Part shown: positions 2,760-16,248 of the stretch, in pieces
How the letters are laid out: every line of letters starts with the position of its first letter
Numbering within the stretch: the first letter of the stretch is position 1
DNA from: an uncultured archaeon
Lineage (GTDB): Archaea > Asgardarchaeota > Lokiarchaeia > Sigyniarchaeales > SOKP01
Assembly (NCBI GenBank): GCA_964388035.1
Contig: CAYLZE010000114.1
Location: forward strand, 1 to 16,248
Length of the DNA stretch: 16,248 nucleotides
Direction: 5' to 3'
Notes under the pieces: generated by a model
Seen by the model: only the letters and a program-made list of their open reading frames with translations
Database searches by the model: none
Told to the model about the DNA's origin: nothing
Translations under genes and position numbers: made by a program

Positions 2760-4136
2760 ATGGAAAACGCAAAACTCTCAAGAAAGCAAATGCTCGGATT
2801 TTCTTTGGGAGCAATTCCAGCCGCTTTACTCGTGTATATATTCAACCTTTATTATGTTGACTTTTTTTATGATGACTTAAAACTCTTACCGGTATTCTTT
2901 ATTATTGGGCAGGTAATTTATGGGATTATTAATGGGATAAACGATCCGCTCATGGGACAGCTTTCGGACAGAACGAACAGGCAAAAATGGGGCGGAAGGA
3001 GAATTCCTTATATTAAATATGGAGCACCATTATGGGCGGTAACATTCATCATAACATGGATTCCATGGAGCATGGATAATCAAATCATCATCTTTCTTCA
3101 ATTTGTTTTTACCACATGCGCTTTTGATACCATGTTAACTCTAGTCGTGCTTTGCTGGATGGCACTCTTGCCAGAGATGACTAGTAACATTGAAGAGCGA
3201 AACATGGTCGTCCTTTATGTTCTTGTTATTGGATTATTAGGAATCTTGCCCTTCATATTTTTAACACCCATTTTTAAGGAAGCGGGATTCCTTCCTTTTC
3301 AAATATTTAATACAATAGTTGGTATAATTTCCGTGGCTTGTTTTTGGATTGTTGCTAAAGTCAGTAAAGAAAAACCAGAATTTCAAAATGACGAGGTTTT
3401 TCCCCTATGGAAGTCCGTCAAAGAGACTCTTAAATCAAAATCATTTAGGTTTTTTGTGGGTTTTAATTTTTTTGAAGCATTTAATGCCTCTCTTGGAATA
3501 ACTTATCTCTTTGCTTATTCATATATCCTTGGAGGAGATATGGTGACGATAATTATTCTTTACTTACTATTTACTTTTGCAATCGGGTATAGTTCCAATT
3601 TTCTGTGCATTAAATTGGCAGCGCCAAAATGGGGCATGCGAAAAACCGTGTTAAGATTAGCATTTATTAAAGCTCTGATTCAGATCACTTTTTTCTTTCT
3701 TATTCTGAATCCTTCAACGGAATATTTAATCTGGCTTGGTGTGGTTCTTACTATGGGCCTTGGTGGATATGGGGTATTCAATACTAATTTCATGTATTTG
3801 TGCATGGATGAAGATGAGGTAAAACAAGGAATACGTAGAGAGGGTATGTTTCTGGGAACGAATGCATTAATTACTAAACCAGCTCAAAGTTTAGGGCCCA
3901 TTCTGGCGACTGTAATATTTACAGCTTTCGGATTCATTCAAAATGAACCTATTCAACCGTCCTCAGCACTTTTAGGAATTAAAATCTTGTTCTTTCTTAT
4001 TCCTGCGATAACCACATTAATTGGACTCATGTTCTTTTATTATTATAGAATAGATGGTGATATATTAGAAGATCTTAAAATCAAGCTTGAAGCACTCCAT
4101 AAAGAAAAACAAGAAAAATTGAATATTACGACTTAA
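2760..4136 (+). CDS. MFS transporter, glycoside-pentoside-hexuronide (GPH/MelB-like) cation symporter family
   Basis: About 12 hydrophobic segments with NDPLMGQLSDRT, WGGRRIPY and D-E..G.RREGMF motifs typical of MFS_2. Confidence 0.9.
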   Translation: MENAKLSRKQMLGFSLGAIPAALLVYIFNLYYVDFFYDDLKLLPVFFIIGQVIYGIINGINDPLMGQLSDRTNRQKWGGRRIPYIKYGAPLWAVTFIITWIPWSMDNQIIIFLQFVFTTCAFDTMLTLVVLCWMALLPEMTSNIEERNMVVLYVLVIGLLGILPFIFLTPIFKEAGFLPFQIFNTIVGIISVACFWIVAKVSKEKPEFQNDEVFPLWKSVKETLKSKSFRFFVGFNFFEAFNASLGITYLFAYSYILGGDMVTIIILYLLFTFAIGYSSNFLCIKLAAPKWGMRKTVLRLAFIKALIQITFFFLILNPSTEYLIWLGVVLTMGLGGYGVFNTNFMYLCMDEDEVKQGIRREGMFLGTNALITKPAQSLGPILATVIFTAFGFIQNEPIQPSSALLGIKILFFLIPAITTLIGLMFFYYYRIDGDILEDLKIKLEALHKEKQEKLNITT

Positions 4137-12402: not shown

Positions 12403-13209
12403 ATGAAAATAGCTGTAAGTGGAAAAGGGGGAGTGGGTAAAACCTTAATAGCGGGAACATTGGCAAGATTATTTGCAAAGGACGGATATAGCGTTCTAGC
12501 TATAGATAATGATTCAGCAATGAATTTGAGCTATACTTTAGGTATCAAGGAAGATGTTAAAAAGAAAATCGTACCTATCTCAAAAATGAAGGAAATCATA
12601 GAGGAGAGAGTAGTTATTAAAGGAGCTGGTTCCGGTGTTTATAACATTAATCCTAAAGTAGCAGATATTCCCGATAAATATAAGGTTCCAGGACCCGATG
12701 GAATACAATTATTAGTATTAGGATCGATCGAACAACCCTTAACGGGATGTTTATGTCCTGAAAACGCACTCATTCGAACGCTTCTCTATAATTTATTCGT
12801 AGAGAGGAATGAGGTCGTGATCGTGGATTTTGAGGCAGGTTTAGAGCATTTAGGCAGAGGGACTGCCAAAGGCGTCGATGTAATGCTCGTAATTACAGAA
12901 CCTTCACAAAAATCGCTTGATTTAGCTGCAAAAATAATAGATTTATCCAAGAAATTAGGAATCATTAACATCTTTTTAATAGCAAATAAAGTATTTGACG
13001 ATGCTCAATTAAAGATAATCCAAGAACGTGTTGAAGAATGGGAAGTACCCCTTTATCATACCTTACCATTTGATCTTGAAATAGGAAAGGCAGACTTAGA
13101 AGGTATCCCACCTCTAGATTTCAATCCTCAATCCGAGGCAATCCAATCGATTAAAAAACTATATTCTAAGTTAAAAGAATTAAAAACTCGAGTATTCGAC
13201 ATAGGATAA
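12403..13209 (+). CDS. cooC: CooC-family nickel-insertion ATPase
   Basis: MKIAVSGKGGVGKT deviant Walker A, GCLCP Ni-binding CxC and DFEAGLEHLGRGT. SD AGGAG lies upstream. Confidence 0.93.
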   Translation: MKIAVSGKGGVGKTLIAGTLARLFAKDGYSVLAIDNDSAMNLSYTLGIKEDVKKKIVPISKMKEIIEERVVIKGAGSGVYNINPKVADIPDKYKVPGPDGIQLLVLGSIEQPLTGCLCPENALIRTLLYNLFVERNEVVIVDFEAGLEHLGRGTAKGVDVMLVITEPSQKSLDLAAKIIDLSKKLGIINIFLIANKVFDDAQLKIIQERVEEWEVPLYHTLPFDLEIGKADLEGIPPLDFNPQSEAIQSIKKLYSKLKELKTRVFDIG

Positions 13210-13214
13210 GAAAA

Positions 13215-13463
13215 TTATATTAATTCTGATAAATCAAGATCTTGGTCATCTGCAATTTTTTTCCATTGTTCAATTGCTTCTAAAGCATCGGTTTCATTCA
13301 TCTGTTCAATTGCATAACCTGCGTGAACAATCACGTAATTTCCTATTTTTGGCTCTTGGATTAATGCGATAATTATTTGTTGCTTGAGACCATCAAAATC
13401 AACCAATGCAGTTTTATTGAGACCATTAATTTCTAAAATCTTGCCAGGAATTGCTAAACACAT
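13215..13463 (-). CDS. hypC: Hydrogenase maturation chaperone HypC
   Basis: MCLAIPG N-terminus and YVIVHAGYAI. The true start is the ATG at 13463, because HypC needs Cys2 at the N-terminus; the listed ORF start at 13475 is 4 codons too far upstream. Confidence 0.95.
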   Translation of the reverse strand: MCLAIPGKILEINGLNKTALVDFDGLKQQIIIALIQEPKIGNYVIVHAGYAIEQMNETDALEAIEQWKKIADDQDLDLSELI

Positions 13464-13631
13464 GGTGTGAGGCACTGTATAAGTTTTTATAAATAATTTA
13501 ACATGTGGAATAAATTAAAATTACTTATTATTTCCGATAACCAAAGAAAGAAAAATTTAAATCTTTCTTATTGTTAAAAATTATTTAGATTAGTTTTTTT
13601 TAATCTAAATAAATAGAGGATTTCTATATTA

Positions 13632-14516: not shown

Positions 14517-15389
14517 TTATAAACCTAATTTGTCCAAAACTGTTTTCAATCGGGTTCTGTGAAAATTTAGACCAATATCACCGGGACTAATGCCCATGCC
14601 TAATGCAATTAATTCTGTAATATAAAGTATGGGAATATCATAATTTTCATTGAACTTTTTCGATAAATCTCTCTGTTTCGTATCAAATTGCTGGAAGCAA
14701 GCAGGACAATTCACGCAGATGACATCAGCTCCTGCTTTTACTATGCTATCAAGTTTTTTCTTTAAAACTTGATCCCCATGCTCCTCATAGGCGTTAGATA
14801 CTGCTGAACCACAACATAATGATAATTCATCATAGTCAACAACAGTAGCCCCTGTAGCAGCTACAATTTTTTTTAGGTTTTCTGGTCGAAACGGATCATC
14901 GGCTTCCATCCATTCTGCTGGACGCATGTAATGACATCCCGGATGGCATGCAACTTTTAAGCCGCTTAATTGTTTCGTGATTGCTCCTTGAATCTTATCC
15001 AAGTTATCCTTAATCACGTCAACGAAATGTCTCACTTCAATGGAACCTTTATATTCCTTTCCAATTTTCCCTAATTGCTTGTTGACCCGTTCTTTTAGGT
15101 GAGAATCGTGCTTTAATTGATGTTGAACACCTCTTAGAGTATTGGTGCATCCATTACATAAAGAAATGATGGGTTTTCCTTCTGCTTCAGCCATACAAAG
15201 ATTTAATGCACCTAATGCTAACCAAACATCATTATCAAAGCTTTTCATCCCCGTTGGGTCGGGACAGCAAGTAAATGGAGCTTCCGAGGTTATAACTCCA
15301 ATTTTTTCGAATACTTTCCTCGATGCAGCTTCAATAAAAGGAATTCTATTTCCAATGGTACAGCCTTCAAACATTTTATATTCTGTCAT
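14517..15389 (-). CDS. hdrB: Heterodisulfide reductase subunit B
   Basis: Two CCG domains: GC..TCCPDP..LCNGC and GCH..LCCG..NCPAC. SD GGAGG lies upstream, directly after hdrC. Confidence 0.95.
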   Translation of the reverse strand: MTEYKMFEGCTIGNRIPFIEAASRKVFEKIGVITSEAPFTCCPDPTGMKSFDNDVWLALGALNLCMAEAEGKPIISLCNGCTNTLRGVQHQLKHDSHLKERVNKQLGKIGKEYKGSIEVRHFVDVIKDNLDKIQGAITKQLSGLKVACHPGCHYMRPAEWMEADDPFRPENLKKIVAATGATVVDYDELSLCCGSAVSNAYEEHGDQVLKKKLDSIVKAGADVICVNCPACFQQFDTKQRDLSKKFNENYDIPILYITELIALGMGISPGDIGLNFHRTRLKTVLDKLGL

Positions 15390-15952: not shown

Positions 15953-16026
15953 TATTGGCTTTAACCCTTGCAAGGGTAGTTATATTCAATCCAAAATTTA
16001 TATTGAATATTCATCCTAAGCCAACA
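15953..16026 (-). other. Predicted three-way-junction RNA spanning the vhuU stop codon; candidate Sec-recoding element
   Basis: Hand-folded: UGUUGGCUU/AAGCCAAUA closing helix, AUAUUCAAU/AUUGAAUAU hairpin and ACCCU-UGCA-AGGGU hairpin. Function is not demonstrated. Confidence 0.4.
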
Positions 16027-16163
16027 TTCAACTTGCGGGAGTAAATTTCATTGCCCTCTTCATCAACAACCGTGATGTGAGCTGCACACGATAGTCAGCA
16101 ATCATAACAGCGAACTATCATTTCTAATAAATTTACTACTCCTTCAGGAATGTCTTCACTCAC
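16011..16163 (-). CDS. vhuU: Selenocysteine-containing [NiFeSe] hydrogenase small peptide subunit VhuU (50 aa, U23)
   Basis: GTG start at 16163. Translates MSEDIPEGVVNLLEMIVRCYDC-U(TGA 16095-16097)-LSCAAHITVVDEEGNEIYSRKLNVGLG*. The TGA is at the first ligand of the C-terminal DPCxxCxxH motif of NiFe large subunits. Confidence 0.92.
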
Positions 16164-16189: not shown

Positions 16190-16248
16190 TTACTTTATCC
16201 AAGGTTCTGGTAATTTCAACCCTTCCAAAGCTTTATCTTCGAAGACTT
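16190..16248 (-). CDS. 3' end of upstream gene, probably hydrogenase large subunit VhuA/MvhA (partial)
   Basis: Open frame from the window edge: VFEDKALEGLKLPEPWIK*, ending 26 nt before vhuU. Identity is inferred from position only. Confidence 0.5.
   Translation of the reverse strand, partial: VFEDKALEGLKLPEPWIK

Follow-up and report, generated by a model that had tools for sequence, protein, structure and literature searches.

Cysteine in place of the conserved proline beside selenocysteine in the VhuU hydrogenase peptides of Asgard archaea

The window analysed here, 16,248 nucleotides in length, is one whole contig (G000:C114) from an Asgard archaeon of the Loki type (Promethearchaeota), and it carries at one end the gene cluster vhuA-vhuU-hdrC-hdrB. 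It is practically certain that the second gene of this cluster is vhuU, which encodes the separate, selenocysteine (Sec)-bearing, Ni-binding C-terminal peptide of a split group-3c (Mvh/Vhu-type) [NiFeSe] hydrogenase. The features of the locus are given below, with residues of the peptide numbered relative to Sec (position 0).

16190..16248, minus strand: 3' end of vhuA, a large subunit without the C-terminal Ni-binding motif; encodes ...VFEDKALEGLKLPEPWIK and a stop codon, the remainder lying beyond the contig end
16011..16163, minus strand: vhuU coding sequence, 50 codons plus the UGA stop (16013-16011), with a GTG start at 16163-16161
16077..16112, minus strand: Ni-binding (L5-type) C-terminal motif RCYDCULSCAAH, aligning to RAYDPCLSCATH of MvhA (5odc_F) and to RAYDP-Sec-YSCAAH of VhuU (9sfi_M)
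16112-16110, minus strand: Arg codon that opens the motif, from the translation
16107..16109, minus strand: Cys(-4) codon, TGT, where small residues (A, S or C) are ordinary
16098..16100, minus strand: Cys(-1) codon, TGC, standing in place of a nearly invariant Pro
16095..16097, minus strand: Sec codon, TGA, position 0; matches the leading Cys of the C-terminal CxxC, which solved enzymes use as terminal Ni ligand
16086..16088, minus strand: Cys(+3), second Cys of U-x-x-C in an invariant column; the bridging Ni-Fe ligand in solved enzymes
16077..16079, minus strand: His(+6), a column with His in at least 90% of the alignment, followed by a 21-residue extension
15980..16014, minus strand: lokiSECIS, composed of AUGA, a 9-bp stem (16010-16002 with 15990-15982), an 11-nt A-rich loop ending in G, and AA
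15403..15909, minus strand: hdrC-like gene (two 4Fe-4S clusters), matching TIGR03290 with E 7e-22, under the curated cut-off
14517..15389, minus strand: hdrB-like gene (CCG domains), matching TIGR03288 with E 4.5e-78, and PF02754
13632-14180, plus strand: 182-aa membrane protein without a family match, near hdrB
13215..13475, minus strand: hypC, hydrogenase maturation chaperone, matching PF01455 with E 1e-23
12403-13209, plus strand: MinD/ParA-type P-loop NTPase with the motif GCLCPEN, near hdrB

Translation of the minus strand from position 16247 with TGA read as U yields ...NLLEMIV-RCYDCULSCAAH-ITVVDEEGNEIYSRKLNVGLG-stop, in which the segment before the motif is KVIKKVSEDIPEGVVNLLEMIV. The original prediction had placed the motif R-C-Y-D-C-U-L-S-C-A-A-H at 16112..16077, and our codon-by-codon reading, checked by hand, agrees with it in both coordinates and in all residues. 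This motif is not a product of chance: it recurs in identical form in a paralogue of the same genome, and a six-frame search retrieved a matching short frame in 56 of the 61 genomes of the class and 146 of the 201 genomes of the phylum, most with one in-frame TGA. The start codon was set to the GTG at 16163, as the paralogue has a stop codon just upstream of the equivalent codon and relatives have an ATG there. The in-frame UGA sits at the first Cys of the C-terminal CxxC, is followed by xxC and His (U-L-S-C-A-A-H), and aligns with the Sec of 9sfi_M. By this alignment, U(0) and C(+3) are assigned to the two canonical C-terminal metal-ligand positions, and H(+6) with the 21-residue tail to the usual maturation end. 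By analogy, His(+6) would be the point at which the maturation protease cleaves.

The earlier assignment of the gene as the VhuU of an Asgard archaeon is well supported, with a VhuA tail upstream, hdrC-hdrB downstream, VhuU as the best family match, and an alignment to 9sfi_M. The peptide is encoded by a small separate open reading frame of 50 codons straight after the 3' end of a large-subunit gene that itself has no Ni-binding motif. Its best NCBIfam match was NF041786 (VhuU; E 6.6e-15, 54.6 bits), under the cut-off of 70, which by the NCBI threshold classes it as a divergent lineage and not as an equivalog. The canonical D-P-U tripeptide of VhuU, present as D-P-Sec in 9sfi_M, is replaced here by D-C-U. 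The VhuA proteins of relatives, 434-446 aa long, share the ...KLPDPWIK tail and stop without a DxCxxC motif; they start with MVKEI.VEP.TRLEGHG, and RICGICPIPHH is present in the VhuA of locus L034. The best NCBIfam match of a relative's VhuA was likewise VhuA. The N-terminal RxCGxC and the large-subunit fold were found on proteins of relatives, namely the L034 VhuA and the fused protein P0001 (see below).

Sec insertion into the VhuU of a Lokiarchaeon, with its SECIS element and UGA stop, was published in 2016 (VhuU.1, Mariotti et al., PMC4989117). The lokiSECIS, as set out in the available part of that paper, consists of AUGA, a 9-bp stem, an 11-nt A-rich loop ending in G, and GA (AA in VhuU), and lies near the stop codon (PMC4989117). 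The element in the window, in the order GGAUGA / AUAUUCAAU / AUAAAUUUUGG / AUUGAAUAU / AA and with a fold z of -2.8, matches this description of the Lokiarchaeota VhuU element point by point, including the shared stop codon (PMC4989117): the UGA of the SECIS AUGA doubles as the stop codon of vhuU. Judged by this match, insertion of Sec into VhuU is predicted, firmly, to be directed by a lokiSECIS whose AUGA provides the stop. UGA is thereby read twice in one gene, as Sec at 16097-16095 and as stop 28 codons later at 16013-16011, and the VhuU peptides of family f1 end in ...GLG-UGA nearly without exception. A search of the window against Rfam, which has no lokiSECIS model, gave 0 matches, and ARAGORN reported nothing in the window. 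In the same genome, a profile search retrieved SepSecS at 471 bits, above its cut-off, whereas the best SelB/EFSec-like match, at 236.7 bits, was just below the bacterial cut-off; an EFSec-like factor is thus likely encoded in this genome. A quick ARAGORN run of the genome listed 7 tRNAs in all, with tRNA-Sec not among these few.

The NTPase, hypC and the 182-aa membrane protein adjoin hdrB, and the same neighbours were found in the relative L062. The C-x-C motif of the NTPase recalls that of CooC-type nickel-insertion ATPases, and by this analogy the protein encoded at 12403-13209 could be a candidate maturation factor of the hydrogenase.

A second vhuU gene with an identical motif resides in the same genome (C90:1604-1750; locus L002, G000:C90:1-1800) and has 79% DNA identity to the gene in the window. 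The gene order on C90 is vhuA tail-hdrC-hdrB-vhuU, in contrast to vhuA-vhuU-hdrC-hdrB in the window; relatives have both orders. When the contigs of this genome's bin were searched, the body of the partner vhuA was absent, and the sole large subunit found was a canonical MvhA on contig C28 with the motif RSFDPCISCATH. Both the window contig and C90 end in the same 55 bases within the 3' end of vhuA, which suggests that the assembly broke at duplicated vhuA genes and that vhuA was lost there. With the canonical MvhA on C28 and two copies of vhuU, a single organism thus appears to have a D-P-C enzyme in addition to D-C-U enzymes.

The distribution of the two additional cysteines was examined in 168 distinct VhuU-type sequences, obtained from 210 loci of Asgard genomes and used for all codon counts; these sequences are mutual relatives and not independent samples, and phylogenetic inertia can imitate selection among them. 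Conservation in homologs, on which the original prediction had made its reading depend, holds for position -1: Cys is found there in 161 of the 168 (TGC 105, TGT 56), with Phe in 4, Pro in 2 and Asn in 1. Neither Ser nor Ala was seen at -1 in any of the 168. Nine of the eleven family codes with a VhuU (f1, f2, f6, f7, f12, f13, f18, f21 and f24) include Cys(-1), while full-length Cys-type group-3 enzymes of the same phylum read D-P-C.

For comparison outside this clade we used a library of family representatives, chosen after a search for the C-terminal region of the fused form had given 2 proteins. In a search whose query was a natural fused Asgard homologue, the best 150 representatives, each standing for one 50%-identity cluster, included 86 group-3 large subunits with the motif; their residue at -1 is Pro in 82, Leu in 2 and Cys in 2, the last being the fused query itself and its near twin. 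Pro occupies -1 in at least 90% of the alignment. Solved group-3 relatives all read RAYDPC, and every solved relative, including the methanococcal VhuU, has D-P-C/U. The usual motif had been given correctly as RAYDP(C/U)xxC, on which the solved relatives, the 86-member reference set and the alignment agree. Both extra cysteines had been described as atypical; this stands for Cys(-1), given Pro in 82 of the 86, and falls for Cys(-4), given that RCYDPC occurs in 12 of the 86. On the sequences compared, Cys(-1) is the norm, even a trademark, of the Asgard Vhu clade and no peculiarity of this genome, and within our survey the Cys-Sec pair was found in Asgard [NiFeSe] hydrogenases only.

Some individual sequences deviate around the motif. 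In L196 (JBHLNR010000021.1, near base 3894) the motif reads RCFDFULSCAAH, a one-base change of Cys to Phe at -1. The sequence comes from a close relative that shares the VhuA family of the window, and its change is distinct from the Phe(-1) of the f4 lineage. In L058 (G002:C57, near base 3206) vhuU reads ...LLEMIVRCFDSLVNSTKW..., with a frameshift within the motif and a search match in two pieces, and represents either a pseudogene or an assembly error. Two representative large subunits, P0008 and P0032, end in ...LLEM(T/A)VRCF(G/N)W, where the motif should go on; their gene calls may have stopped at the Sec codon, in which case the invariant Asp would be replaced and Trp would stand at -1. 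Other gene calls end in ...RAYDP and would be fused D-P-Sec forms.

A phylogeny of VhuA was built with FastTree after removal of the motif region; its support values are local and many long outgroup branches were flagged, and we draw from it claims of clade and nesting only. The Asgard Vhu clade has a support of 100, with Cys(-1) in 85 of its 90 rows and Pro in all outgroups. Its exceptions lie inside the clade, with Asn (L052) at the unresolved base and Phe and Pro nested deeper, and the tree needs at least 4 changes of the residue at -1. As read from the sequences sampled, the change from Pro to Cys maps on the tree to the root of the Asgard Vhu clade or close to it.

Cys(-1) is retained where Sec itself has been converted to Cys, in L050, L053 (fused), L101 and L110; at least 2 of these conversions occurred on the tree (L050 and L053), L101 and L110 being outside it. 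Conversely, Sec is retained in the variants with Pro, Phe or Asn at -1. Taken together, the two patterns mark Cys(-1) as a feature of the protein, independent of recoding and of selenium. L101 (G122:C63, near 1942) and L110 (G118:C227, near 1894) are split Cys-type VhuU paralogues with the motif R(C/A)YDCCLSCSAF, in which His(+6) is changed to Phe, and their genomes also have a Sec-type VhuU. By analogy with Vhc of Methanococcus, they may be Se-independent back-up isoenzymes, perhaps without the usual protease site.

The fused form in L053 (P0001; L053:3538-5016, minus strand; near twin P0002) is a large subunit of 493 aa (RGYDCCLSCAAH). P0001 nests within the clade of split Asgard Vhu enzymes, indicating that a split gene was re-joined. 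Its AlphaFold model (pLDDT 91) is helical up to -4 and a coil from -3 to -1; in a fold comparison it matched MvhA best (5odc_F, TM 0.93).

Position -4 behaves differently. Its codon in the 168 sequences is TGT in 99, TGC in 50 and another in 19 (N, I, A, S), so that a CxxC formed by C(-4) and C(-1) is present in 149 of the 168. Whole Asgard families have S, A, N, I or G in place of Cys(-4), which is missing throughout f24, f13, f6 and f7. The same position in the 86 motif-bearing enzymes among the best 150 representatives is Ala in 46, Cys in 12, Ser in 11, and others. Because Cys(-4) is common among canonical enzymes and drifts among Asgard families, it is best seen as part of ordinary A/S/C drift. 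Position 0 is TGA in 165 of the 168 sequences and TGT in the other 3, which are split forms; a fused form has TGC there. None of the 168 has TGA at -1 or -4; the idea that relatives interchange Cys and Sec at these two positions is thus contradicted, and only position 0 switches.

VhuA Cys391, a candidate inter-subunit partner of Cys(-4), tracked that residue in the first 43 loci, but the link was gone with 91 loci, and the pairing is rejected: VhuA 391 is I, L or V in many sequences with C(-4), and is Cys in the S(-4) family. Nor, at these 91 loci, does the presence of VhuA Cys155 follow that of Cys(-1).

These data argue that Cys(-1) is kept by selection acting on the amino acid, because both Cys codons are common while changes of residue are rare, in a peptide that is otherwise 40-70% identical across families. 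Replacement at -1 is by Phe, Pro or Asn only, never by Ser or Ala, although Cys-to-Ser takes one base change and -4 swaps with S, A and G; this hints that it is the thiol itself that is kept at -1. We therefore considered several accounts of what the residue may do. The one that we tentatively put forward, as possible rather than probable, is a thiol-specific second-shell role, in which Cys(-1) would most likely act as a resolving or protecting thiol. Upon oxidation of the Ni-bound selenolate (thiolate in Cys-type forms), the neighbouring Cys(-1) would capture it as a vicinal selenenylsulfide (or disulfide); reduction of this Se-S or S-S bond would then restore the Ni ligand, with chemistry as in the Cys-Sec pair of thioredoxin reductase, and Cys(-4), where present, could help to reduce the Cys(-1)-Sec bond. 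Such a protecting thiol has to contend with geometry, as an extended backbone turns neighbouring side chains opposite ways and a vicinal Se-S bond would need local rearrangement. Moreover, 7 sequences do without Cys(-1), which is therefore not essential, the putative helper Cys(-4) is missing in families f24, f13, f6 and f7, and methanococcal Vhu works with Pro at -1. The literature searched contained no biochemically characterised Asgard hydrogenase. A bolder and unlikely version is that the Cys-Sec pair forms a built-in redox switch, in which the oxidised selenolate would leave Ni and be parked on Cys(-1), to be resolved via Cys(-4) in most lineages. To our knowledge, no such selenenylsulfide switch has been described for any hydrogenase.

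The absence of Ser and Ala also bears on a non-redox account, which we regard as somewhat unlikely. Loss of Pro frees a backbone N-H and could alter conformation or hydrogen bonding near the Asp(-2) 'canopy' residue and the selenolate, which would adjust potential, proton transfer or bias without Se-S chemistry. Such tuning would be in keeping with the location of -1 beside the invariant Asp and the Ni ligand, with other substitutions, as compared with canonical enzymes, fixed in the VhuA of this clade (M148 for R, T272 for K) that suggest a generally remodelled enzyme, and with the tolerance of Pro, Phe and Asn at -1 in some lineages. It would, however, lead one to expect Ser or Ala at -1, which were found in 0 of the 168 sequences yet are common at -4. 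It is distinctly unlikely that Cys(-1) is a historical accident, fixed in the ancestor of Asgard Vhu and since maintained, without a specific function, by inertia or weak constraint. An accident of this kind would fit with a change that arose once, basally or nearly so, in one clade, and with the Phe, Pro and Asn exceptions, which look intact and keep Sec; but non-synonymous change has remained rare over deeply diverged families in spite of the mixture of TGC (105) and TGT (56) codons, while -4 drifts in the very same peptides.

It is very unlikely that Cys(-1) serves as an additional metal ligand, its thiolate being a fifth Ni ligand in the oxidised resting state or a transient binder of Ni or Fe during assembly of VhuU with VhuA. 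For a group-3 enzyme in which the protein supplies an additional Ni ligand there is a precedent in Glu32 of the NAD-reducing hydrogenase 5xf9, whose fold matches P0001, and the CxxC in 149 of the 168 sequences and the presence of hypC in the same cluster could both be accommodated. Against this, the split methanococcal VhuU assembles with Pro at -1, and C(-4) is not conserved across families. Finally, a UGY codon ahead of the Sec UGA might improve Sec insertion by the lokiSECIS system, and one Loki HdrA is also reported with Cys beside Sec (in the available text of PMC4989117). This recoding account is extremely improbable, being largely refuted by the retention of Cys(-1) in the UGA-less Cys-type forms L050, L053, L101 and L110 and by the retention of Sec after Pro, Phe and Asn codons.

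The gene family as such is known. The available text of a 2024 survey of the Asgard selenoproteome counts the gene under FrhA/MvhA/VhuU (PMC11227280), and VhuU is counted across Asgard archaea in the accessible portions of the later surveys (PMC11227280, PMC11291895, PMC13188914). In the available portions of the literature searched, the motif is given as UxxC, with no mention found of the Cys-Sec pair or of the loss of Pro (PMC4989117, PMC11227280, PMC11291895, PMC13188914). As far as could be seen from these portions, the D-C-U variant of the active site is undescribed; it is a peculiarity at the level of sequence, within a gene family that had been published before. The variant has a thiol, beside the catalytic selenolate, in place of a residue that ranks among the most conserved of the [NiFe] active-site motif, which suggests that these enzymes may depart from the model enzymes of methanogens in how they handle oxygen, in maturation or in catalytic bias. 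The H2-based syntrophy proposed for Asgard archaea, which among prokaryotes are the closest relatives of eukaryotes, gives Hdr-Mvh/Vhu hydrogenases a central place. If the redox switch were true, it would provide reversible protection or regulation of the H2-evolving Hdr-Vhu on which this syntrophy is thought to depend. The Pro-to-Cys change is also a simple engineering idea for a tractable [NiFeSe] hydrogenase.

Compared with known systems, the gene in the window is the same as the VhuU of Lokiarchaeota, as presented in the available text of PMC4989117: an open reading frame of about 50 aa with a single Sec, vhuA and hdr neighbours and a lokiSECIS, with no difference in kind. The VhuU of Methanococcales (9sfi/9t1s chain M, 27 residues, solved together with VhuA) is likewise split, has Sec at the first position of the CxxC, and has in common with the window peptide the local sequence ...NL(I/L)E(I/M)V.R.YD.U.SCAAH; it differs in having Ala at -4 and Pro at -1 (RAYDP-Sec) and in its type of SECIS. 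MvhA of the Hdr-Mvh complex of Methanothermococcus thermolithotrophicus (5odc_F, group 3c [NiFe]) matches both the peptide and the fused Asgard homologue best in sequence and fold; like Asgard Vhu it is Hdr-associated, but it is a single fused chain with Cys at position 0. The periplasmic [NiFeSe] hydrogenases of Desulfovibrio vulgaris Hildenborough and Desulfomicrobium baculatum (5jsk, 1cc1) are related in fold to the fused Asgard homologue, but they belong to group 1 and are fused, unlike the split group-3c VhuU. These Desulfovibrio and Desulfomicrobium enzymes have Pro at -1. A Cys directly N-terminal to Sec, as in the window motif, occurs in the Gly-Cys-Sec-Gly of thioredoxin reductase, a chemical analogy and not a homology. 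There, the Cys-Sec pair, carried on a flexible C-terminal tail, forms a reversible vicinal selenenylsulfide and serves as the redox centre itself, whereas the Sec of VhuU is an internal metal ligand.
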